The notes under the pieces were generated by a model that was given only the letters and a program-made list of their open reading frames with translations, searched no databases and was not told the DNA's origin. 64,000 nucleotides of DNA, from the NCBI RefSeq assembly GCF_015223195.1, contig NZ_JADFUA010000001.1, positions 575,858 through 639,857 of the forward strand, written 5' to 3'. Below, in pieces: positions 1,635-13,524 of the stretch. Position numbers and translations under genes: made by a program. The DNA is from Chitinilyticum piscinae (GTDB lineage: Bacteria > Pseudomonadota > Gammaproteobacteria > Burkholderiales > Chitinibacteraceae). Each line of letters starts with the position of its first letter. Position 1 is the first letter of the stretch.

Positions 1635-2057
1635 ATGATGGCTGAATACGATGATCTCGAGCGATTTGTGGTGGCGCAGGAGGCTTACTATGCCACGGCC
1701 CTGGCCGAATTGCGGGCAGGGAAAAAGCGCAGCCACTGGATGTGGTTTGTCTTCCCGCAACTGGCCGGGTTGGGGCGTAGCGAAACGGCGCGCTTTTATG
1801 CGCTTTCGGGGCGGGAGGAGGCGCAGGCCTTTCTGGCGCATCCCCTGCTTGGTACGCGCTTGCTGGAATGTACTGCCGCAGTGCTGGCGCTGCCCGCGCC
1901 GGATCTGCTGCAGCTGTTCGGCAGGCCGGACGACCTGAAATTCGTCTCTTCGATGACGCTGTTTGCAGCGCTCAGCCCGCCCGGCTCGGTGTTTGGGCAG
2001 GCTCTGCAGCATTGCCGAGCCTGCCCCGATGCGCGCACGCTGGCGCTGCTGGCTTAG
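1635..2057 (+). CDS. DUF1810 family protein
   Basis: 140 aa containing the HWMWFVFPQ...GLGRS motif typical of DUF1810 proteins. Confidence 0.65.
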
Positions 2058-3673
2058 GCGCGGAACTGGCTGATCAGCGCCTGCAGGCGGTCAGTCTGGC
2101 CGCGCAGCTGCTGGCTGAGTTGTTTGGCATTGGCTGCCGCTGCCGCATTGCTTTCCGAGGCCGCCGAGATACGGTCTACCTGCTCGGTGACCATCTGATT
2201 GGCCTGTGATTGCTCGTGCAGTGCCGAGGCAATGCTTTCGATCATGGCCATGGATTGTTGTGCCGACTGTTCGATGCCTTCAACAGCCTGACCACCATCG
2301 CGGGTAAGAGTAACCCCTTGCCCGACGCGGCTGACGGCTGTCTGCATGTGGTTCATCGACGCATCGGACTCCTGCTGAATCTGGCCAATCATGCCAGCGA
2401 TTTCTGCCGTAGCCCGTGTCGTGCGTTCGGCCAGCTTGCGCACCTCGTCGGCCACTACGGCAAAGCCGCGCCCCTGTTCGCCGGCACGTGCCGCTTCAAT
2501 CGCGGCATTCAATGCCAGCAGATTGGTCTGGTCTGCCACATCCTTGATGGTCTGCATGATGCTGGAAATGCTGGCGGTTTTGTTCACCAGGCTGTTGATG
2601 ACGGTAGATGTATCTGCAACCGAGACGTTGATTTCTTCCATTTCCAGAACGGCTTTGCCCAGCAGGGTCCGCCCTGCCCGTGATTGCTCGGCAGACTGGC
2701 GTGAGTGCACATTGGCCGATTCGGCACTTGCGGCTATCTGATGCACGCTTTCGGTCAGCTCGGTGATGGCGGCAGCCATGGCCGCAGCGGCCTCATGCTG
2801 GCGGAAGGAGCCGGATTCAACCTGTTCGGCATCGCTGGCCAGCTGCTGGCTCATGCGGTTGACCCCGCCGGATACGGATCCCAGTTCGCTGACCAGTGTG
2901 CGCAATGAGGACTGCATCCGCGCCAGATCGTGCATCAGACTGCCATCGTAGTGGCGCGCAACCGGAATGGGGTTTTGCAGGTCACCATTGGCAATCGCGC
3001 GCATGGCGCCAGCGGCGGTCGCGGGTTCCCCGCCCAGCTGCCGGTAAAGCGAGCGGGTAATCTGCAGCGCGATGGCCAGCAGGATGGCGGTGATGACCGC
3101 GATCAGGAGCAATTCCTGCAGCAGGGTTTGCCAGAACTGGGCCTGAATGTCCTCGACATAGACCCCGGTACCAATAATCCAGCCCCAGGCGGCGAAGCCC
3201 TGGACATATGACAGCTTGGGCTGGGGTTTGTCGCTGCCCGGCTTGGGCCATTGATAGCTCACGAAGCCCTTGCTCTGCTGCGTGACGGTGGCAACCATCT
3301 CCATGAACAGCAGTTTGCCATCCGGATCCTTGATGCTGCTGAGGTCCTTGCCATCCAGTTCCGGTTTTGCCGCGTGCATCACCATGCGCGGCTGCATGTC
3401 GTTGATCCAGAAATATTCGCTGCCGTTGTAGCGTAGGGCCTTGATGGCGGCCTTGACCTCGGCCTGTGCCGCTTCGCGGCTCAATTGCCCGGCCAGTTCG
3501 CGGGCATGGGCCTGAGCAGCCAGCTGGACCGCGATTTCAACCAGATTGCGCAGCTTGTCCTCGCGGTCCGTCTGCATCTGGCTGCGCAGCATCAGACTGC
3601 CAACGAGGGCGACGATGCTCACGCCGATGAGCGCCAGGGCAATCAACCCGAGCAAACGATTGCGTACCGACAT
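2054..3673 (-). CDS. methyl-accepting chemotaxis protein (single-Cache sensor)
   Basis: 539 aa with an N-terminal TM helix and a periplasmic Cache-like region ([25 protein letters not shown]). A second TM helix and a HAMP domain follow. The MCP signalling domain carries the highly conserved [33 protein letters not shown] stretch. Confidence 0.9.
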
Positions 3674-3785: not shown

Positions 3786-4889
3786 CTACGGGGCTTCGGC
3801 GGCTAGGTGTGGCCAGAGCGGCAGTGTGTGAGGGGTGGCGGCACAGGAGGGTGAGCTTGCCGTCGCGGCGTCGGTAAATCGAACCCCGACGCCCAGCAGC
3901 CGTACGGGCCGAGCGCCACGCTGCCAGGCTTGTGTGAGTAGCCGCTTGAATAGCTCGGGGTCGGGATTGCGGGCACTGCACTCCATCGTGGTCTGCGTGA
4001 AATCGTGGAATTTGATTTTGACAAATGCTTTGCTTGGGGTATCACCCTGATGTCTATGTAATCTATTGCTTAGGTCGATATACAGGGAGGGGGTTTTCTC
4101 CAGGCAGGCTGCGAGATCGGGCAAATCCTGCGCGTAGGTGTGTTCGACCGACAATGACTTGCGTTGCCATTCGGTTTCCACCGGGCGATCGTCGATGCCA
4201 CGGCACTGGCGGTAGAGCGAACTGCCCAGCCTGCCGAAATGGTGTTCGAGCGAGGCGAGTGGCCAGCGCTGGGCATCGCCGCACAGAATCAGTCCATGTC
4301 TGGCCAGTCGTGCGGCGGTCACCTTGCCGATGCCCCACAGTTTGGCAATCGGCAGCGACGGCATGAAGGCATCGATGCCATCCGGCGTGATGACGAACTG
4401 GCCATCGGGTTTGTTCCAGTCGCTGGCGATTTTGGCCAGCAGCTTGTTGGGCGCGATTCCGGCGCTGGCGGTAATACCGACCTCGCTGGCGATGCGGGCG
4501 CGGATTTCCTGTGCCATCAGCGTGGCACTGCCCTGACAGTGGCTCAGCCCGCTTACATCCAGATAGGCTTCATCCAGTGACAGTGGCTCGATGCGCTCGG
4601 TGTAGTCGCGGAAGATCGCCTGCACGCGCTGCGAGGCATCCTTGTAGCGGGCAAAATCATGGGGCAGCAGCACCAGTTGCGGGCATTGCCGCAAGGCCCA
4701 GCTGGTAGGCATGGCCGAATGGATGCCGAATTGCCGTGCGACATAGTTGCAGGTGGAAATGACGCCGCGCTGGCCGGGGGCGCCGCCGATGGCAATCGGG
4801 CGCGTGCGCAGCTCGGGCTGGTCGCGCATTTCCACGGCGGCGTAGAAGCAATCGCAATCGATATGGATGATCTTGCGCTGGGTGGTCAT
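3786..4889 (-). CDS. dinB: DNA polymerase IV (Y-family translesion polymerase)
   Basis: 367 aa. The N-terminus MTTQRKIIHIDCDCFYAAVEMRDQPELRTRPIAIGG, together with SLDEAYLDV and the little-finger region, is the classic DinB signature. Confidence 0.9.
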   Translation of the reverse strand: MTTQRKIIHIDCDCFYAAVEMRDQPELRTRPIAIGGAPGQRGVISTCNYVARQFGIHSAMPTSWALRQCPQLVLLPHDFARYKDASQRVQAIFRDYTERIEPLSLDEAYLDVSGLSHCQGSATLMAQEIRARIASEVGITASAGIAPNKLLAKIASDWNKPDGQFVITPDGIDAFMPSLPIAKLWGIGKVTAARLARHGLILCGDAQRWPLASLEHHFGRLGSSLYRQCRGIDDRPVETEWQRKSLSVEHTYAQDLPDLAACLEKTPSLYIDLSNRLHRHQGDTPSKAFVKIKFHDFTQTTMECSARNPDPELFKRLLTQAWQRGARPVRLLGVGVRFTDAATASSPSCAATPHTLPLWPHLAAEAP

Positions 4890-4962: not shown

Positions 4963-5622
4963 TTAGTAGCCCCCACCGCCTCCGCTGCTATTGAGGCCAT
5001 TGGCAAAAGGCGGTCTGCGGTATTGCAGCGCTTCCAGCATGGTCAGTTCGGCATCGGTGTGGTTGATGACTTCACTGGCCGCTTTGATCTGCTTGCCCTC
5101 CACCCAGTAAGGATGCTCGTGGTGCTTGGTCTGGTACGTCATTCTGGCAGCTGGATCCGCTGTCGGCGTCAGCTCCACGCTGCCATAGCACAGACAGACA
5201 TAACTGCGAGCGCCATGGCTTTCGACATACAGACCGGTTCCGCGGATGCCCAGCGTCACGGCCTGGGTGCGGATGGTCTTTTCGCCGGGGCCGAAGACTG
5301 CCAGCATTTTTCCGCTCTGCACCTTCACCACGTGCTCTGCTGCCGCGAGGCCCAGGGTGACTTCGGTATTGGCGCGCAGCAGGTAGGCGTCGCCATCGAC
5401 GGTAAAGACCGCTTCGCTATTGCTGCCGGTGACAACTTCATCGCCCCAGCTGACGGGTTGGCCGACCACGGCTGGTTTGCCGTTGATCAGCACCTGTCCC
5501 TTGATGCTTTTCAAGCCCGGCTTGGGCAGGAAAAAGGCGCCGGCAATCGCTCGGCCACCCAGGAGCAGGGTGCTTCCGGCAAGCCATTGCAGGATCTGGC
5601 GGCGGGTGTATGGCTTAGACAT
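4963..5622 (-). CDS. FecR-domain protein with Tat-type signal peptide
   Basis: 219 aa. Twin-arginine leader TRRQILQWLAGSTLLLGG. FecR-like beta region VVTGSNSEAVFTVDGDAYLLRANTEVTL. Glycine-rich C-terminus. Its start lies 2 nt after the stop of the upstream CHASE2 cyclase gene. Confidence 0.65.
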   Translation of the reverse strand: MSKPYTRRQILQWLAGSTLLLGGRAIAGAFFLPKPGLKSIKGQVLINGKPAVVGQPVSWGDEVVTGSNSEAVFTVDGDAYLLRANTEVTLGLAAAEHVVKVQSGKMLAVFGPGEKTIRTQAVTLGIRGTGLYVESHGARSYVCLCYGSVELTPTADPAARMTYQTKHHEHPYWVEGKQIKAASEVINHTDAELTMLEALQYRRPPFANGLNSSGGGGGY

Positions 5623-5624
5623 GA

Positions 5625-7763
5625 TCAGCTCCGGTGGGGGCGGGTAGCCAGCTGCTCACGGTAGATGTGGTAGAGCTGGCGTTGTGGTGCCTGCCGGGCG
5701 AGGTCGTCCAGCAGGGCATGGGCACGTTCGGTGTCGTTTTGCTGCAGAGCCTGCTGCAGCTCATCCCAGCGTAGCACTTCGCCGGCAGACAGCCAGGGCG
5801 CACGCTCGTCCAGCGGCAGGGTCAGCGCGACAGTCTGCTGGCGGCCCTTGACTGTCGTGGTGGCGATGGGCAAGCAAGGTATGTTGCTGGTGACACGAGA
5901 AGCTACCTCGCCGCTGACCAGCAAGGGCACGTCATAAACCCGGGTCAGTTTTTCCAGCCGGGCTGCGACATTCACCGCGTCACCCATAACTGTGTAGGCG
6001 CGGCGGAATTCCGAGCCCATATTCCCTACCCGTACCTTGCCGCAGTGCACGCCGATCCCCAGATTCAGGACCGGCCAGCCGCGGCTGGCAAAGTCGGCAT
6101 TCAGCTGGGTAACGCGTCGCTGCATGGCCAGCGCGGCGTCCACGGCGTGCCGGCAATGCTCGGTGTCGGCCAGCGGCGCCCCCCAGAAGGCCATGACGGC
6201 ATCGCCGATGTACTTGTCGATGGTGCCCTGGCGTTGATGAATTTCTTCGGTCATTGCACTCAGATAGCCGTTGACCAGCTCGGCCAGTGCCTCCGGCGGC
6301 AAGGCTTCGGCCACGGCGGTGAAATCGCGCAGATCGGCAAACAGGATGGTCAGTTCGCGGGTTTCCGGCTGCATGGCGAAGTGCTGTGCGTCATCCTGCA
6401 TGCGCCGCACCAGCTCCGGCGGCACATACTCCCCGAACAGGCGCAGCAGCTGGCGGCGCTGACGTGCTTCCCAGAGCCTTGCGGCCAGCACGAAGCCGAA
6501 ATAGGGCAGCAGCATCGCCGCCAGCGGCTCGACCAGTGGCAGCAGCAGACGCTGGTTCTGCCACGCCCAGCCGACGATCCCCAGCAGACTGCTCACGCCC
6601 AGCAGCAGCCACAGGTGGCTTTCCAGCAATCCGGCGCGCGGCAAGCGCCACAGTAGCAGTCCGCCCGCCAGTACGATCCAGCCCACGGCAAACAGCGCAC
6701 CCCATTGGGGCGCTTGCGGCAGGGTGCCGGTACGCAAGCCCAGTACGGTCGCCGCCTGTGCTTCGACTCCGGGAAACAGCGGGCTCACCGGCGTGGCGCG
6801 GATGTCCTGCAGCCCGGTTGCGGTGGCCCCCACGATGATGATTTTACCCTTCAGGGTATTGGTCGGCAGGCTCCTGTTAATGATGGCTGCCGCCGAATAC
6901 GTAGGGATGGTTCCCGGTGGGCCATAGAAAGGGATACGGACTCGCCCGTGCCGGTCGGTGTGCACCAGCCGGCCATCCAGCAGTACACCATCGGGCCAGG
7001 GCTGGCCGCTCTGCCAGTCGGGAATGACCGGCTGCTGGCTGGCCAGCCGCGCCGAGAGCGCGGCATACAGGCTGTGGCGGTAGGCAATCAGCAGCGGGAT
7101 GCGCCGCACGATGCCATCGTCGTCGATTTCGGGGTTGAGGTAACCGGTGTGCGGCAAAGCACCAGCCAGTCCGGCATGCGTGGCGCCATAGCCGCCGGCA
7201 GTGACAAAGGGCGCCAGCCTTGCCGCATCACCTTGCCAGTCCGGCGCAGGTAGCACCCCCTGCTGCTGCGGATCCGGTGTGAAGTAGTAGCCGGCGACCA
7301 GTTGCAGCCTTCCGGCGCGACTGCGGAACAGCGCGTCGGGATCTTTCTCGGCGGCCCAGTCCTTTTCGGCTTCGCTGCACTGGCGTGGACCCAGCCGTTC
7401 GCACAGCAGCGGCCACAGGCGGGCCAGCTGGCTTTCCTCGGCCTCGGCCAGCACGATGTCCAGCCCGATGCGCTGCGTGCCGTAATGGGTCTGCAGGGTT
7501 TCCAGCAGCTCGAGCAGGCGGGTGCGCGGCCAGGGCCAGCGGCCCAGGCTGGCCAGGCTGGCGTCGTCGATGGCCACGATGGCCACATCCTGCGCCGGCA
7601 GCTGCCCGGTCGCCGAGGCGCGCTGGCGGGCATCTTCGCTGTAGCGGTCGAGCTGCCCGAGCAAGGGGAGCGACAACCAGCCCAGTGCATGCAGGAGCAG
7701 CAGCGCCAGAACGGCGCCGAGCAGCAGGCGGCTGAGCAGCAGGCGGGGCAGGGGCATGGACAC
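5625..7763 (-). CDS. CHASE2-sensor class III adenylate/guanylate cyclase
   Basis: 712 aa. N-terminal TM helix followed by a periplasmic CHASE2-like region and a multi-TM segment. The CYTH-cyclase catalytic core is LTILFADLRDFTAVAE...IDKYIGDAVMAFWGAP...GIGVHCGKVRVGNMGS. Confidence 0.85.
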   Translation of the reverse strand: MSMPLPRLLLSRLLLGAVLALLLLHALGWLSLPLLGQLDRYSEDARQRASATGQLPAQDVAIVAIDDASLASLGRWPWPRTRLLELLETLQTHYGTQRIGLDIVLAEAEESQLARLWPLLCERLGPRQCSEAEKDWAAEKDPDALFRSRAGRLQLVAGYYFTPDPQQQGVLPAPDWQGDAARLAPFVTAGGYGATHAGLAGALPHTGYLNPEIDDDGIVRRIPLLIAYRHSLYAALSARLASQQPVIPDWQSGQPWPDGVLLDGRLVHTDRHGRVRIPFYGPPGTIPTYSAAAIINRSLPTNTLKGKIIIVGATATGLQDIRATPVSPLFPGVEAQAATVLGLRTGTLPQAPQWGALFAVGWIVLAGGLLLWRLPRAGLLESHLWLLLGVSSLLGIVGWAWQNQRLLLPLVEPLAAMLLPYFGFVLAARLWEARQRRQLLRLFGEYVPPELVRRMQDDAQHFAMQPETRELTILFADLRDFTAVAEALPPEALAELVNGYLSAMTEEIHQRQGTIDKYIGDAVMAFWGAPLADTEHCRHAVDAALAMQRRVTQLNADFASRGWPVLNLGIGVHCGKVRVGNMGSEFRRAYTVMGDAVNVAARLEKLTRVYDVPLLVSGEVASRVTSNIPCLPIATTTVKGRQQTVALTLPLDERAPWLSAGEVLRWDELQQALQQNDTERAHALLDDLARQAPQRQLYHIYREQLATRPHRS

Positions 7764-7846
7764 TCCGGCAGAATGTGTCTGCAGTCAAGAACATCAATCG
7801 GACTGGGGCAAGCCCCGGCAGTACCGATGGCGAGCCACAACGTGGC

Positions 7847-10800
7847 TCACGGGCGGATGAGTGTCTGAATTGCGTGTTGCAGCTGCTGTTGCCGCATGTC
7901 GAGTTCCTCCTGGGCTGTCTGCAGCAGGTGCAGCTGGCCGGTATGTTTCAGCGCAATCAGGCGCTGGCCGAGCAGGTGCAGCTGCTCGTGCCGCGAGGCG
8001 AGCTCCAAGAAGGCCGGTTTGCTGCCGTGCCGCTGCAGGCCGTCGCCATTCAGCCAATGCCCGAGTTTGCAGTCGTGGCTGGCTGCGGCGGGGGGCAGCG
8101 CCGATTCGCCCCGTAGCCAGCCCTGCAGCTGTGCCATCCAGGCGCGATGGTCAACCGCGGCAAACAGCAGCGGGAGATCATCTCGCCGGACTTCCGCACA
8201 ATGAGCCCATTCCGGCGGTGGTTGCCAGCGAGCCAGCCATTCGGGTATTGCGGCAGCAGGCATCGGGCGCGCGATGGCATACCCCTGCGCCCATTCGCAG
8301 CCCATCTGCAGCAGCAGCTCGCCATGAGCCAGTGTTTCTACCCCTTCGGCAATCGCATTGCGCTGGAACGCGGTAGCCAGCCCCAGCACCCCTTCCAGAA
8401 TGGCGAGGTCTTCCGGATCGTCAAGCATGTCGCGCACGAAGCTCTGGTCGATTTTCAGCACCTGCGCGGGTAGCTGTTTCAGATAAGTCAGCGAGGAATA
8501 GCCGGTACCGAAATCATCCAGTGCGAAGCCCACCCCCAGATCGCGACAGGCCAGCATGATGTCCGAGAGCTGGCGGATATCCTCCAGTGCACTGGTTTCC
8601 AGTACTTCCAGCTCCAGATCGCCGCTCTGGAGGGCTGGATGTGCGGCCAGCGTCGCGCGCAGTTTGTCCAGAAAAGTGGATTGTCCGAACTGGATGGCGT
8701 CGATATTGACGCTGACCGGCACGTGCAGGCCCAGGCTGCGCCACTGGCTGATCTGCGCCAGCGCGGTATCCAGTACCCATTCGCCCAGCTGGATGCCGAG
8801 GGCATGATTATCGATCGCCGGGAGAAATTCAGCCGGTGGCAGCAGGCCTTTTTGCGGATGCTGCCAGCGCAGCAAGGCTTCTGCCCCCAGCACCTGCCCG
8901 GTGCGCATATTCACCTTGGGCTGGTAGTGCAGCACGAACTCATTGCCGGCCAGTCCCTGCCGGATGCGTTCCTGGGTTTCGTGATGCCCGCGCACCATCC
9001 GATCCTGTTCGGCATCGAAAAGGTGATAGCGGTTCTTGCCGGCCTGCTTGGCCACATACATTGCCTGATCTGCCTGGCGCAGCAGCTGGTCGGCATCAAC
9101 CTTGTCCGCTTGCGGGAAAAACGTCACCCCGGCACTGGCTGAGACATGCAGCAGCTTGCCATCGACATGCACCGGCTCGGCAGCAGCGGCCAGCAGCCGT
9201 TTCAGAATCGGTGTACTGCTCTCCTGATCGTGCAGATCCTGCAGCACGGCCACGAATTCATCGCCACCCAGCCGCGCCAGGGTATCTTCATCACGCAGGG
9301 CATCCTTCATCCGGGCGGCCAGTCTGGCCAGCAGGCGATCCCCCGTCTTGTGGCCAGAACTGTCGTTGATTTCCTTGAAGCCATCCAGATCCAGATACAC
9401 CACGGCCAGGCTGGCTGCATGCCGCTGGGCATGGGCCATCGCCTGGTGCAGCCGGTCGCCCAGCAGTACCCGGTTGGGCAGATCGGTGAGGATGTCGAAA
9501 TGGGCAATCCGTTCCAGCTGGGATTGGTGCTGCTTCAGTTCGGTAATGTCGATGGCGACCCCCAGGACATGGGTGGCATCGGCAACCTGATAGGGGATTT
9601 TGCTCGTCTGCAGATCCCGGCGACAGCCGGTGTGATCGATGAAGGTATCGTCAGGAATGCAGATGGCCTTGCCGGACTGGATGACTTCCTGATCGGCCGC
9701 CTGTATGCCGGCAACCAGCTCCGCATCCCGGTTGAAGTCCGCATCGCGGTGGCCCAGCAGTTGTTCCGGTGTGGTGCCATAGGCGCTGGCGAGAGCCTGG
9801 TTGGCCAGTGTGTACTGGCCCTGATTATTCCGCGCAAAAATGAAATGCGGTACCAGGTCAATGATGGTGCGCAGATGGCGCTCGCGCTCGCTGATTTCTG
9901 CTTCGGCGTGCTGGCGCTGCCTGATTTCGTGACTGAGTGCCGCGTTGCTTTCGCTGAGCTGCCGGGTGCGTTCGGCCACCCGCTGTTCCAGCGAGGCCTG
10001 CAGCTCGCCCAGACTATCCGCCATCTGATTGAAGGAGCGCGCCAGTTCCCCGATTTCATCCTGATTGTGCACGGCGGCCCGTTCATCGAGGTGGCCGGCC
10101 GTAATGGCCTGGGTGGTGCCCAGCAGGTGGCGCACCGGCTCAAGGATACCCCGGCCAAGCTGACGGGCCAGCAGCATCGCCGCAATGATCGTCAGCACAA
10201 AGCAGCTGCCGGCCAGAATCAGAGCCAGCAGGATGCTGTGCCGGATTTGCGCACGGGTATCGTTTTCCAGTTGCTGCGCGGCCGACTGAATCTGCTCCGA
10301 CAGGCTTTGCAGTGTCTGTTCGGTCTGGCGATTGCGGCTCTGGTATTGCAGTGCGCTGGCGAAACTGTTCAGGTAACTGCCGGCATCGCGCAGGATGCGA
10401 TAGATCTGCCGCTGCTGCTCGGATTGTCTGATCTGCACCCTGCTTTCCCCTTGCAGACGGGCCAGCTCGAGTGTCAGCCGCTCGATCTGTGCGGTGGCCG
10501 CCGTGGGGGGCTGGTTGCGGATTGCCTGGGTCTGCCAGAGCAGGCTGCTCACTTGGTCTGAGAGCGTATCGACCGCTGAATGAGTATGAGGGTGTGATTC
10601 GGAAAGCCGGATGGCGACGATGTCGTTCATCACCCGCGCGCTCAGGGCGCTGGCCTGGCTTTCCAGTGCGGCCTTCTGGTCCAGCTCGATAACGAACTTC
10701 TGGAAGGTGGCGCGGTACTCGTCCAGCACCGGGGGCAGTTTGCCAAGCAGGCGGGTGCGATCCTGCAGTCCGCTGATTGCACCCCTGACCTGATCGAGCT

Positions 10801-11038
10801 GGTGAAAGGTTTCCGCGGCATCTTCTCGGGCACGGGTTTGCACGAAATGCGTGACTCCGTCGTGCATGCGGTCAAGCTTGCTGGTCAGTTGCTCCGAATC
10901 GTTCTGCAGATCCAGCTGGCGGGTGATGGCCAGCCCGGTCACTACCCCGACCAGTGCGTTCAGTGCCAGCAATGCAATCAGCACGCCAAAGCTCAGGCTG
11001 ATTTTCTGCTGGAAACGGAGTCGGGACAGCAGTTTCAT
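7847..11038 (-). CDS. membrane sensor with HAMP-PAS-GGDEF-EAL domains and a C-terminal CZB (chemoreceptor zinc-binding) domain
   Basis: 1063 aa. TM helix, ~270-aa helical periplasmic sensor, second TM and HAMP (QAITAGHLDERAAVHNQDEIGELARSFNQM), then a PAS domain. GGDEF domain with RLGGDEFVAVL. EAL domain with EALLRWQHPQKGLLPP...QPKVN. C-terminal ~100 aa HRAWMAQLQGW...CKLGHW...HEQLH fit the CZB H-x3-W / C-x-L-G-x-W / H-x3-H pattern. Confidence 0.9.
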   Translation of the reverse strand: MKLLSRLRFQQKISLSFGVLIALLALNALVGVVTGLAITRQLDLQNDSEQLTSKLDRMHDGVTHFVQTRAREDAAETFHQLDQVRGAISGLQDRTRLLGKLPPVLDEYRATFQKFVIELDQKAALESQASALSARVMNDIVAIRLSESHPHTHSAVDTLSDQVSSLLWQTQAIRNQPPTAATAQIERLTLELARLQGESRVQIRQSEQQRQIYRILRDAGSYLNSFASALQYQSRNRQTEQTLQSLSEQIQSAAQQLENDTRAQIRHSILLALILAGSCFVLTIIAAMLLARQLGRGILEPVRHLLGTTQAITAGHLDERAAVHNQDEIGELARSFNQMADSLGELQASLEQRVAERTRQLSESNAALSHEIRQRQHAEAEISERERHLRTIIDLVPHFIFARNNQGQYTLANQALASAYGTTPEQLLGHRDADFNRDAELVAGIQAADQEVIQSGKAICIPDDTFIDHTGCRRDLQTSKIPYQVADATHVLGVAIDITELKQHQSQLERIAHFDILTDLPNRVLLGDRLHQAMAHAQRHAASLAVVYLDLDGFKEINDSSGHKTGDRLLARLAARMKDALRDEDTLARLGGDEFVAVLQDLHDQESSTPILKRLLAAAAEPVHVDGKLLHVSASAGVTFFPQADKVDADQLLRQADQAMYVAKQAGKNRYHLFDAEQDRMVRGHHETQERIRQGLAGNEFVLHYQPKVNMRTGQVLGAEALLRWQHPQKGLLPPAEFLPAIDNHALGIQLGEWVLDTALAQISQWRSLGLHVPVSVNIDAIQFGQSTFLDKLRATLAAHPALQSGDLELEVLETSALEDIRQLSDIMLACRDLGVGFALDDFGTGYSSLTYLKQLPAQVLKIDQSFVRDMLDDPEDLAILEGVLGLATAFQRNAIAEGVETLAHGELLLQMGCEWAQGYAIARPMPAAAIPEWLARWQPPPEWAHCAEVRRDDLPLLFAAVDHRAWMAQLQGWLRGESALPPAAASHDCKLGHWLNGDGLQRHGSKPAFLELASRHEQLHLLGQRLIALKHTGQLHLLQTAQEELDMRQQQLQHAIQTLIRP

Positions 11039-12348
11039 GGCGCGGGTTTCACGGCCCTAGTGGCGGAAAACCGGGCGGCCGCTTCATCGGCCAGCCGCCG
11101 GGTGATTTCCGGATAGGCATCAGGAAAAGCGAGAAATTCGGCAAAGGCATCCAGCCCGAGCTCGGCGACTGGTGGGGGGGTGGCAAGGTCAAAGGCAAAA
11201 TCGAAGACCGGACTGCGCTCGAGTTCTTTGCGTACCCGGCGCTGGATATCGCTGTAGGCGGAATCAGGAACCTGCAGATTCGGTGCCAGTGCGCCGGAGT
11301 AACGGCTGAAGGTGCGCTGGGCCTCGGCGCTGGCCAGATAGCGCAGCGCAGTACCGGCACCGGCCTTGTCGTGTGCCCGTTTCGGCATCACGATCCCGTC
11401 AATGGGGCCGAGTGCCACCGTCGGAATGGCCGGGTCAATTTGCGGGAAGGGAAAGAAGTCGAAATCCTTGCCGGCCTGCCACTGGTGCGTGTTGTTGCTG
11501 AAATAGGCCAGATTCCAGGTGCCCATCAGGGTCATGGCGGCTTCACCACGGAAGACCATGTCGTTGGCACCGCTGTCCCAGGCCAGCTCATTGGGATGCG
11601 GTCTGCTGTTGAAATACCCCTTGTCGATCAGGCTTTTCCAGCGCGCAAACACGGCCCTGACCTGCGGGTCGTCAAAGCGGGCCTCACCGGACATCAGCTG
11701 CTGCCGGAACGAGTAGGGCGCGGTGCGCAGCAGCAGATAATCGAACCAGAACTGTGCCGGCCACTTGTCGCGGGCACCCAGTGCAATCGGCGTGATGCCC
11801 CGCGCCTTGAGCGCGGCACATACCGCCAGAAACTCCTCCCAGGTCTTGGGGGGCTGCAGCTGCAGCTGATCGAACAGTTTTTTGTTGTAGAAGAACGCAA
11901 TGTAGTGCTGGGTTAGCGGCAGGAAGTATTTCTTGCCCCGGTATTCGCTGGCTGCCTTGATCACGGAGGGGGCGAATGCCTTGTCCCAGCCGGCTTGCTG
12001 CCACAGCTCGTCCAGCGGCTCCAGCTCATCAACAATCGAAGCCGTGCGTGCACCGGCCCAGTAGGAATACAACTCGGGCGGATTGTCGGTTTTCAGCGTG
12101 TCCTGGATGCTGGTCTTGAATGCTTCGTGGTCGAGGGAAATTGCTTTCAGCTCCAGTGCCGGATGCTGGTTATTGAAGCCCTGCGACATTTCATCGATGC
12201 CGCCACTGAGCGAATCGGTGAAGTAATGCAGAAACGTGATCGAGGATCGTGGCGGCGGTACTGCCGTGTCATCGTTGCGGGAGCAGGCCGCCAGTGCCAG
12301 CAGGATGGCGCTCAGCAGTGCGGCGAGCAGCAGGGTTCCGGCACGCAT
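11035..12348 (-). CDS. periplasmic solute-binding protein (ABC-type, family 1) with lipoprotein signal; orphan, coupled to the sensor gene
   Basis: The ORF runs to 12441, but the signal peptide MRAGTLLLAALLSAILLALAACS begins at ~12348. The ~430-aa mature protein has the family-1 SBP fold (FLAVCAALKARGITPIALGARDKWPAQFWFDYLL). Its stop overlaps the downstream sensor start as ATGA (11035-11038). Confidence 0.8.
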   Translation of the reverse strand: MRAGTLLLAALLSAILLALAACSRNDDTAVPPPRSSITFLHYFTDSLSGGIDEMSQGFNNQHPALELKAISLDHEAFKTSIQDTLKTDNPPELYSYWAGARTASIVDELEPLDELWQQAGWDKAFAPSVIKAASEYRGKKYFLPLTQHYIAFFYNKKLFDQLQLQPPKTWEEFLAVCAALKARGITPIALGARDKWPAQFWFDYLLLRTAPYSFRQQLMSGEARFDDPQVRAVFARWKSLIDKGYFNSRPHPNELAWDSGANDMVFRGEAAMTLMGTWNLAYFSNNTHQWQAGKDFDFFPFPQIDPAIPTVALGPIDGIVMPKRAHDKAGAGTALRYLASAEAQRTFSRYSGALAPNLQVPDSAYSDIQRRVRKELERSPVFDFAFDLATPPPVAELGLDAFAEFLAFPDAYPEITRRLADEAAARFSATRAVKPAP

Positions 12349-12543
12349 CTCGGGATCCATGGTGTGTGGATGAGCCTGAAGTATAGGATGCCCTGCAGGG
12401 AGCGCAGGCGGAGGGAGGAACCCCGTCGCCGTCGCAGGCATGCAGGCCTTAACGTGCCCCTTTCCGGAAAATGGCTCGCGGGGCTGGTCAAATGCGGGTC
12501 AAGCGCGCAAGCTAGCGGGCGTCATGCCCCTGACAGCACCATC

Positions 12544-13524
12544 ATGAATGCCCCCGACCCCCTGCGTTACCAAAAGCGTCTGCAGCGTGTACTGCAGCAC
12601 ATCGAAGCGCGGCTGACCGAGCCGCTGGAGCTGGCCGACCTGGCCGGGGTTGCCAATTTTTCTCCGTTTCATTTCCAGCGCATTTTTTCGGCACTGATCG
12701 GCGAAACACCGCAGGATTACATCCGCCGCCTGCGGCTGGAGCGGGCGGCCAACCAGTTGCTGGTGCACAAACGGCGCAGCGTGCTGGATATTGCGCTCTC
12801 GAACGGTTTTGAAACGCAGCATGGTTTTGCCAAGGCCTTCCGCAAGCATTTCGGCATGAACGCGACCCAGTGGCGCAGCGATCGCAGTTTCTGGCAGTGG
12901 AACGGCTATCGCTGGGAATGGCGCAAGGATCGCAATCCCGGACCCATACCGGGCAATTTCCGACACCTGTACCAGACCGACGCCGCGTACTCTGAGGACC
13001 GGATTGCCGCACTGAATGCTGCGCATCGGGGTGAGCGTCCGGAATGCATCCGGGGGGTGCGGATCGACATCTTGCCGGCCTATCACGCAGCAGTCTTCCG
13101 GCGGCTGGGTCATCAGCTGGAGCAGCCCCTGGCGCACTGGCGCGAGGTGCTGGCGTGGGCCGAGCTGCAAGGCGTGCCGCTGGAAGGCGGCACCGGGCTG
13201 TGCGTGTGTCACGACAACATCAATATCACGCCGGAGCGCATGCTGCGGCTGGATACCGGATTGGTGGTGCCGGCAGACTATGCGCCCGACGGCGTGACAA
13301 CACTGATCGACACCCTGCCTGGCCGCTATCTGGTGGTGCAGTTCGAAGGCGCGATTCATGAGGAAGTCGTGGCCAATGCCTGGCTGTGGGGGCACTGGTT
13401 CAACGACAACCCCTACGAGCCCGACGACCGGCCGACCATCTATCGCGCACCGTATCAGCCGCTGGATGTGTCGCCTGATGCCCGATACCGCTTCGACATC
13501 TGCATTCCGGTACGCCTGATCTGA
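12544..13524 (+). CDS. AraC-family transcriptional regulator with GyrI-like effector-binding domain
   Basis: Real start at MNAPDPLRY (~12544) inside the longer ORF 11995..13524. HTH_AraC signature LADLAGVANFSPFHFQRIFSALIGETPQDYIRRLRLERAANQL. C-terminal ~160 aa form a GyrI/Rob-like domain. Confidence 0.8.
   Translation: MNAPDPLRYQKRLQRVLQHIEARLTEPLELADLAGVANFSPFHFQRIFSALIGETPQDYIRRLRLERAANQLLVHKRRSVLDIALSNGFETQHGFAKAFRKHFGMNATQWRSDRSFWQWNGYRWEWRKDRNPGPIPGNFRHLYQTDAAYSEDRIAALNAAHRGERPECIRGVRIDILPAYHAAVFRRLGHQLEQPLAHWREVLAWAELQGVPLEGGTGLCVCHDNINITPERMLRLDTGLVVPADYAPDGVTTLIDTLPGRYLVVQFEGAIHEEVVANAWLWGHWFNDNPYEPDDRPTIYRAPYQPLDVSPDARYRFDICIPVRLI

Follow-up and report, generated by a model that had tools for sequence, protein, structure and literature searches.

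What could a CZB domain contribute at the very end of a protein that already carries a GGDEF and an EAL domain, the two catalytic modules of cyclic diguanylate (c-di-GMP) metabolism? The question is raised by a gene on the minus strand of a 64-kb stretch of DNA (64,000 nucleotides of contig NZ_JADFUA010000001.1, hereafter the window) from Chitinilyticum piscinae, a betaproteobacterium of the Neisseriales, family Chitinibacteraceae. An earlier reading of the DNA letters, made without database searches (the sequence-only reading), had placed a zinc-binding CZB domain at positions 7850-8150 and had suggested that the protein responds to two inputs, a periplasmic ligand and cytoplasmic zinc or redox state. 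Judging by profile, motif and structural model, the last ~100 residues are almost certainly a true CZB four-helix bundle with a predicted 3His/1Cys zinc site. That this domain acts as a zinc- or oxidant-responsive regulator of the EAL half is a possibility to which we assign, by analogy with known CZB proteins, a probability of roughly 0.45.

Identity of the C-terminal domain

The region 7850-8150 forms the C-terminal part of an open reading frame (ORF) of 1063 aa at 7847..11038 on the minus strand, delimited by the ORF itself, by its Pfam domains and by its product, which is 100% identical to the NCBI/UniRef entry 'EAL domain-containing protein [Chitinilyticum piscinae]'. The peptides HRAWMAQLQGW, SHDCKLGHWLNGDG and LASRHEQLHLL, on which the sequence-only reading had based its assignment, were all found at the C-terminus of this ORF, and its coordinates proved exact: the codon of H964, the first residue of HRAW, occupies 8147-8149 and that of the last residue 7850-7852. 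A search with the Pfam CZB profile (PF13682) bore out the assignment, as residues 964-1028 (7955..8149, minus strand) matched positions 1-64 of the 64 profile positions and scored 42.7 bits where the gathering score is 29.4 (E 7.1e-11). The predicted zinc ligands are H964 (8147-8149), C990 (8069-8071), H1017 (7988-7990) and H1021 (7976-7978), all on the minus strand, and the codons of H964 and C990 were read in the DNA. CZB domains follow the motif Hxx[WFYL]-x21-28-Cx[LFMVI]Gx[WFLVI]-x18-27-HxxxH, and this motif is satisfied here by H964-RA-W967, 22 residues, C990-K-L-G-H-W995, a further 21 residues and H1017-EQL-H1021. Among the six-frame ORFs of the 64-kb window that reach 60 aa, this is the sole site to match a slightly looser regular expression, and a second CZB domain was found in the six-frame ORFs of the window neither with this expression nor with a profile of the C-terminal tail.

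The tail profile, which was built from six C-terminal regions (those of this protein and of five homologs), also matched the CZB entries of DgcZ in the PDB, 3t9o with an E-value of 1.1e-5 and 4h54 with one of 0.003, the 4h54 sequence having an alanine at the position of the cysteine. The first histidine of DgcZ (H22), its cysteine (C52) and its HxxxH pair align to H964, C990, H1017 and H1021, respectively. An AlphaFold2 model of residues 943-1063 (mean pLDDT 87.8) contains helices at fragment residues 10-33, 49-62, 66-91 and 94-119; in this model the fourth CZB helix and the C-terminus lie in residues 1029-1063 (7850..7954, minus strand). The top PDB match of the model in Foldseek was 3t9o_B, 'Regulatory CZB domain of DgcZ', with TM-scores of 0.70/0.71, a root-mean-square deviation of 3.4 over 115 columns and a probability of 1.00. 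The CZB domain of DgcZ was the sole solved CZB structure retrieved in the profile and fold searches.

The His and Cys positions were also examined among orthologs, where the sequence-only reading had seen a way for its assignment to fail, and they turned out to be very well conserved. Four full-length homologs of 1065-1069 aa with 54-56% identity (P0002-P0005) and a soluble PAS-GGDEF-EAL-CZB protein of 903 aa (P0009) keep the four ligands together with W967 and W995, and the ligands are invariant in 6/6 aligned sequences. Among 158 aligned related domains, all four ligands are present in 152, the cysteine in 157 and the third histidine in every one. The agreement of ligand conservation, profile and motif goes well beyond what chance would give.

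The EAL-CZB unit and its possible function

An exhaustive profile search over 1.84 billion cluster representatives showed how common this arrangement is, the C-terminal profile matching 4804 clusters with a threshold of E <= 1e-3 and 833 with one of E <= 1e-10. GGDEF-EAL-CZB proteins with the CZB domain at the extreme C-terminus make up 108 of the 151 closest sequences; the rest are 14 with EAL and CZB and no detectable GGDEF (mostly short, and perhaps fragments), 28 short CZB-only sequences (many of them probably fragments) and 1 chemoreceptor. A CZB domain directly adjoining GGDEF occurs in 0 of these 151, and a Pfam scan of ten of them agreed with their assigned architectures. Genomic loci were collected with one peptide pattern and one genome per species (253 matched, 80 fetched), and GGDEF-EAL-CZB was encoded in a single ORF at 76 of the 80. 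The hosts are mainly Beta- and Gammaproteobacteria, with Rhodoferax, Propionivibrio, Sideroxydans, Thiobacillus, Methylobacter, Thiodiazotropha and Rhodocyclaceae represented. As judged from these alignments and scans, the protein belongs to a large Beta-/Gammaproteobacterial subfamily with CZB fused C-terminal to EAL, and within this subfamily CZB occurs predominantly in GGDEF-EAL-CZB proteins. The sequence-only reading had implied that the placement was unusual, a view that does not survive these counts and that earlier descriptions of the architecture had already made untenable (PMC8262984, PMC6416229).

The connection between the two domains is strikingly uniform. In the present protein the EAL domain (residues 690-925, 8264..8971, minus strand; Pfam E 3.5e-68) is followed by a proline-rich junction (residues 926-963, 8150..8263, minus strand). 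Between the EAL match and the beginning of the CZB profile lie 13-23 residues, with a median of 15 (79 loci), W944 of the junction is invariant (139/139 non-gap) and P956 nearly so, and at the genomic loci a median of 4 residues separates the CZB match from the protein end. The N-terminal sensors of the relatives differ, among them REC, multiple PAS, HAMP and SBP_bac_3 modules, so that EAL-CZB stands out from the alignments as the constant unit and the N-terminal inputs as the part that is swapped.

Both catalytic domains appear intact. The GGDEF domain (residues 512-670, 9029..9505, minus strand; Pfam E 5.3e-47) has its GGDEF motif at 591 and an RxxD I-site (RDED at 582) five residues upstream of it, and the EAL domain has EALLR at 720, DDFGTGYSS at 841, KID, EGVE and QGY. 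Of 110 aligned relatives, 109 likewise have an intact GGDEF motif and 104 have RxxD; EAL and DDFGTGYSS are conserved as well. Because the motifs of both domains are intact, these proteins are bifunctional-type enzymes by sequence, and the one studied here is an inner-membrane enzyme of that predicted type. It was not assignable to a named c-di-GMP enzyme: all NCBIfam equivalogs (DibA, DosP, the PdeR-type PRK10060, HmsP, LapD and others) scored far below their cut-offs, the best match being DibA with 408.6 bits against a cut-off of 980.

Two relatives have other layouts. The chemoreceptor P0123 (1028 aa) has an MCPsignal domain at 782-938 and five tandem CZB domains (Pfam, 184.8 bits, 5 stretches), which is unusual in comparison with the single CZB domain found otherwise. 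In P0133 (415 aa) an SBP_bac_3 segment is combined with only the C-terminal half of EAL (profile positions 112-236) and with CZB; a faulty assembly or a truncated gene call is the probable origin of this layout, which is unlikely to be a real architecture.

How might the CZB domain act on such an enzyme? If DgcZ and TlpD are taken as guides, the CZB domains of two chains would pair and would bind Zn2+ very firmly. A change in zinc occupancy, or an attack of HOCl-like oxidants on C990, would alter the geometry of the CZB bundle or dimer, and the change would be passed via the conserved junction to the pairing of the EAL domains and, indirectly, of the GGDEF domains, which would shift the balance of c-di-GMP breakdown versus synthesis. 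The periplasmic signal would come in independently of the CZB signal: a sugar-type lipoprotein, the solute-binding protein (SBP) encoded next to the sensor, would dock on the HBM/TorS-like periplasmic domain and signal via the second transmembrane helix, HAMP and PAS. A dual input of this kind, with a periplasmic ligand on one side and cytoplasmic zinc or an oxidant on the other, is plausible in view of these analogies and of the conserved gene order. Because of the fixed-length junction and the invariant tryptophan, we propose further, though tentatively, that the CZB domain is a dedicated EAL partner throughout the subfamily, forming a zinc- or oxidant-gated phosphodiesterase switch, and that its union here with the sugar-SBP/HBM input might allow one enzyme to integrate an extracellular carbohydrate cue with zinc or redox state in the cytoplasm. 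Given the host genus, the carbohydrate cue could conceivably be chitin-derived, but this is speculative.

Several points weigh against a regulatory CZB domain fed in this way. The CZB domain hangs off EAL by a proline-rich linker, and the model is partly unstructured there (fragment residues 1-9, with pLDDT <50 only at 1-4); since the CZB domain of DgcZ is joined to GGDEF, whereas the one described here is attached to EAL via this linker, the coupling route cannot be taken over from DgcZ as it stands. Furthermore, DgcZ binds zinc with sub-femtomolar affinity (PMC8262984), so the site could be permanently filled and thus structural rather than sensory. No experimental paper on any GGDEF-EAL-CZB or EAL-CZB protein turned up in the collection of papers that was searched. 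The Foldseek E-value for 3t9o is only 0.09, as is usual for helical bundles. On the periplasmic side, no Pfam family, HBM or TorS-type included, matches the region at E <= 1, and the contact between SBP and sensor is one that we infer only from gene order and fold analogy.

The question of permanent occupancy leads directly to another explanation, according to which the CZB domain serves as a zinc-loaded structural dimerisation clamp for the EAL pair that carries no signal, all regulation coming from SBP/HBM, HAMP and PAS. EAL phosphodiesterases generally need dimerisation. That the domain stands last in the chain, a median of 4 residues from the end, speaks for such a clamp, the fixed EAL junction suits it as well as it suits a sensor, and the affinity reported for the CZB domain of DgcZ would imply near-constant occupancy (PMC8262984). 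Three histidines alone would hold zinc, however, and the ligand cysteine is nevertheless kept in 157/158 relatives; the same cysteine is the oxidant-reactive element in DgcZ and TlpD (PMC8262984). Moreover, a Rhodoferax protein (P0006) with the same SBP partner and the same array has no CZB domain, which indicates that the EAL array can exist without it. On balance we find a purely structural clamp rather unlikely.

It could also be argued that, as in DgcZ, it is the cyclase half (GGDEF) on which the CZB domain acts, and that EAL merely lies between the two in sequence. DgcZ, the only biochemically studied c-di-GMP CZB protein, is indeed a case of cyclase regulation (PMC13492106), nearly all members of the subfamily have an intact GGDEF and I-site, and the corresponding class was named 'EAL-containing diguanylate cyclases' by Perkins et al. 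(PMC8262984). The conserved junction, with its constant spacing and invariant tryptophan, is to EAL, however; the CZB domain is directly next to GGDEF in none of the 151 closest sequences, and EAL-CZB proteins without detectable GGDEF exist, both among these (14/151, mostly short and possibly fragments) and as the 'EAL-CZB' subgroup of the published survey (PMC8262984). We hold this alternative to be quite improbable. A chance resemblance, in which a generic helical tail with His and Cys residues would have neither CZB ancestry nor a metal site, might be suspected because helical bundles yield many weak structural matches, there was no PDB match at E <= 0.001 and nothing was matched when the 121-aa tail by itself was used in a word-indexed search. 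The empty search reflects a limit of the index, which missed the identical parent protein too, and the Pfam match above the curated threshold over the full profile, the thousands of matching clusters (4804 at E <= 1e-3, 833 at E <= 1e-10), the alignment of the ligands to DgcZ by profile, 3t9o as top fold match with a TM-score of 0.70 and the presence of the ligands in 152/158 domains effectively exclude it; its probability is negligible.

As a discovery the domain itself adds little: it is publicly annotated, and published surveys have already tallied proteins of this architecture. Its residual value is that of a pointer to how a CZB domain behind EAL may regulate c-di-GMP turnover. Among c-di-GMP enzymes, the published mechanistic work on CZB deals with DgcZ alone, in which the topology is reversed and EAL is lacking. 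The subfamily is large and uniform, with 833 clusters at E <= 1e-10 and a constant junction, so that one biochemical study would generalise widely. The present protein with its conserved SBP partner could serve as a model of two-compartment signal integration, and zinc- or oxidant-gated phosphodiesterase switching, if true, would be a regulatory mode so far without experimental demonstration.

Periplasmic domain, partner gene and neighbourhood

From N- to C-terminus the protein consists of a transmembrane helix, a helical periplasmic domain, a second transmembrane helix, HAMP, PAS, GGDEF, EAL and CZB. The two predicted transmembrane helices (residues ~13-38 and ~268-291) stand on either side of the periplasmic domain (residues ~39-267, 10238..10924, minus strand), and are followed by HAMP (residues 294-343, 10010..10159, minus strand; Pfam E 1.3e-14) and a PAS domain of the PAS_4 family (residues 396-502, 9533..9853, minus strand; Pfam E 7.2e-10). 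The AlphaFold2 model of the periplasmic domain is all-helical (pLDDT 82.5). Its best structural match is the helical bimodular (HBM) ligand-binding domain of McpS (2yfb, E 8e-5, target TM-score 0.70), and TorS sensor structures, including TorS-TorT complexes, were matched as well (3i9y with a target TM-score of 0.55, and 3o1h). In the model the likeness to HBM and TorS is one of fold only. That the periplasmic domain might itself be an SBP was ruled out, as it is predicted to be all-helical. The sequence-only reading had spoken of a periplasmic sensor acting via an SBP, and this holds insofar as the protein has its own periplasmic domain, HBM/TorS-like in the model, with an SBP nearby; the SBP is, however, a separate upstream gene and not a domain of the sensor.

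This gene, at 11035..12441 on the minus strand, encodes a family-1 (sugar-type) solute-binding protein (SBP_bac_1, E 7e-32). Its TGA overlaps the ATG of the sensor gene in ATGA, an arrangement of translational coupling. Its start is likely M28 at 12360, followed by the lipobox LAAC, the cysteine of which is invariant in homologs. An SBP gene lies directly upstream of the homologous sensor in three loci with CZB (L001, L002 and L021) and in one without (L003). The SBP is 63-69% identical to those of L001-L003 and 72% to that of L021, the sensors being only 45-56% identical. No genes for an ATP-binding cassette (ABC) permease adjoin the SBP gene, which is flanked by the sensor gene on one side and by an opposite-strand AraC/GyrI-like gene on the other; this fits an SBP dedicated to signalling that would act on the HBM/TorS-like domain as TorT does on TorS. 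An orphan gene of this kind points to a binding protein that serves signalling alone and whose ligand is under strong constraint. The closest solved relative of the SBP is AcbH (E 2e-37), with other sugar binders coming next. Its identification with NgcE, a chitobiose binder that a chitinolytic genus would bring to mind, was rejected (75.6 bits against a cut-off of 399.65).

In an uncultured Rhodoferax (P0006, L003 4001-6868) the SBP partner is accompanied by an HBM-HAMP-PAS-GGDEF-EAL protein that ends ~20 residues past EAL, without CZB. This homolog offers a natural comparison, with and without the domain, for the contribution of CZB.

On the other side, 83 bp downstream of the stop of the CZB gene and on the same strand, lies a gene for a protein with CHASE2 and a class III adenylate/guanylate cyclase domain (5625-7763, minus strand), followed by a gene for a FecR-domain protein (4963-5622, minus strand). 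Between the CZB gene and the cyclase gene there is a weak 5-bp stem at 7815..7800, and the count of terminator sites is not above the shuffled expectation. The orthologs in L001, L002 and L003 are not followed by the CHASE2 cyclase/FecR pair, which is therefore probably an independent cyclic nucleotide monophosphate signalling module beside the c-di-GMP one. Further downstream are genes for an sCache_2 methyl-accepting chemotaxis protein (2054-3673, minus strand), which had no CZB domain in the window-wide regular-expression and profile scan, and for a DinB-type DNA polymerase IV of the impB/mucB/samB family (3786-4889, minus strand). The regulator adjoining the SBP gene on the opposite strand has an AraC-type helix-turn-helix and a GyrI-like effector-binding domain (11995-13524, plus strand). 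The start listed for it (TTG at 11995) falls within the SBP gene, and the true one therefore probably lies further downstream.

Comparison with known systems

The closest counterparts are proteins that have been catalogued. In a set of 10,140 CZB proteins, Perkins et al. (2021) distinguished seven subgroups, among them 'EAL-containing diguanylate cyclases' and 'EAL-CZB', with EAL proteins amounting to 3.4% of the set and being restricted to Alpha- to Deltaproteobacteria (PMC8262984). Moya-Beltran et al. (2019) described PAS-GGDEF-EAL-CZB (AFE_1725) and Protoglobin-GGDEF-EAL-CZB (AFE_1712) proteins in Acidithiobacillus (PMC6416229). The present protein has the domain order and both sets of catalytic motifs of the GGDEF-EAL-CZB subgroup, and it shares with the catalogued members the Proteobacterial range and the intact 3His/1Cys site; what it adds is a membrane-anchored HBM/TorS-like domain, HAMP and a dedicated SBP partner gene. 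A biochemical characterisation of the catalogued proteins was not found in the literature search.

Escherichia coli DgcZ (YdeH; PDB 3T9O, 4H54) is the counterpart for fold and mechanism, as its CZB fold and zinc ligands align with those described here and both proteins belong to c-di-GMP metabolism. In DgcZ the zinc-bound CZB domain locks the homodimer in a misaligned, inactive state that is relieved by oxidation of Cys52 (PMC13492106, PMC8262984, PMC8846402), and reviews cite DgcZ alone for CZB control of c-di-GMP enzymes (PMC8846402, PMC13492106). Regulation by zinc and cysteine oxidation is, by this analogy, likely to be shared. The two CZB domains have, however, only ~17% identity in the structural alignment, and DgcZ is a soluble protein whose N-terminal CZB domain immediately precedes GGDEF and which lacks EAL, PAS, HAMP and any membrane part. 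The class of DgcZ-like proteins, defined by an N-terminal CZB followed by a C-terminal GGDEF (PMC8262984, Table 2), does not describe our protein, in which CZB (964-1028) comes after GGDEF and EAL; the sequence-only reading was right to place it C-terminal to the whole HAMP-PAS-GGDEF-EAL array, on the side opposite to that in DgcZ.

In this respect Helicobacter pylori TlpD and Salmonella McpA are more similar, as their CZB domain is C-terminal to the output module. With its ligand cysteine that domain detects HOCl or the redox state (PMC8262984, PMC12422006). Their output is an MCP signalling domain for chemotaxis and not GGDEF-EAL; MCPsignal gave no Pfam match at E <= 1 in the present protein, which is thus not a chemoreceptor. 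The topology is therefore nearer to TlpD than to DgcZ, whereas the CZB profile and the predicted fold match DgcZ.

For the periplasmic half, the TorS-TorT system offers a parallel, in that an SBP encoded beside a membrane sensor reports the ligand and TorS is among the fold matches, although TorS is a histidine kinase. Vibrio cholerae NspS-MbaA is likewise an SBP-dependent membrane sensor system, and MbaA is also a GGDEF-EAL protein. The SBP described here is of the sugar-type family 1, with AcbH as its closest solved relative, and a contact with the sensor like that of TorT with TorS is suggested by gene order and fold analogy.

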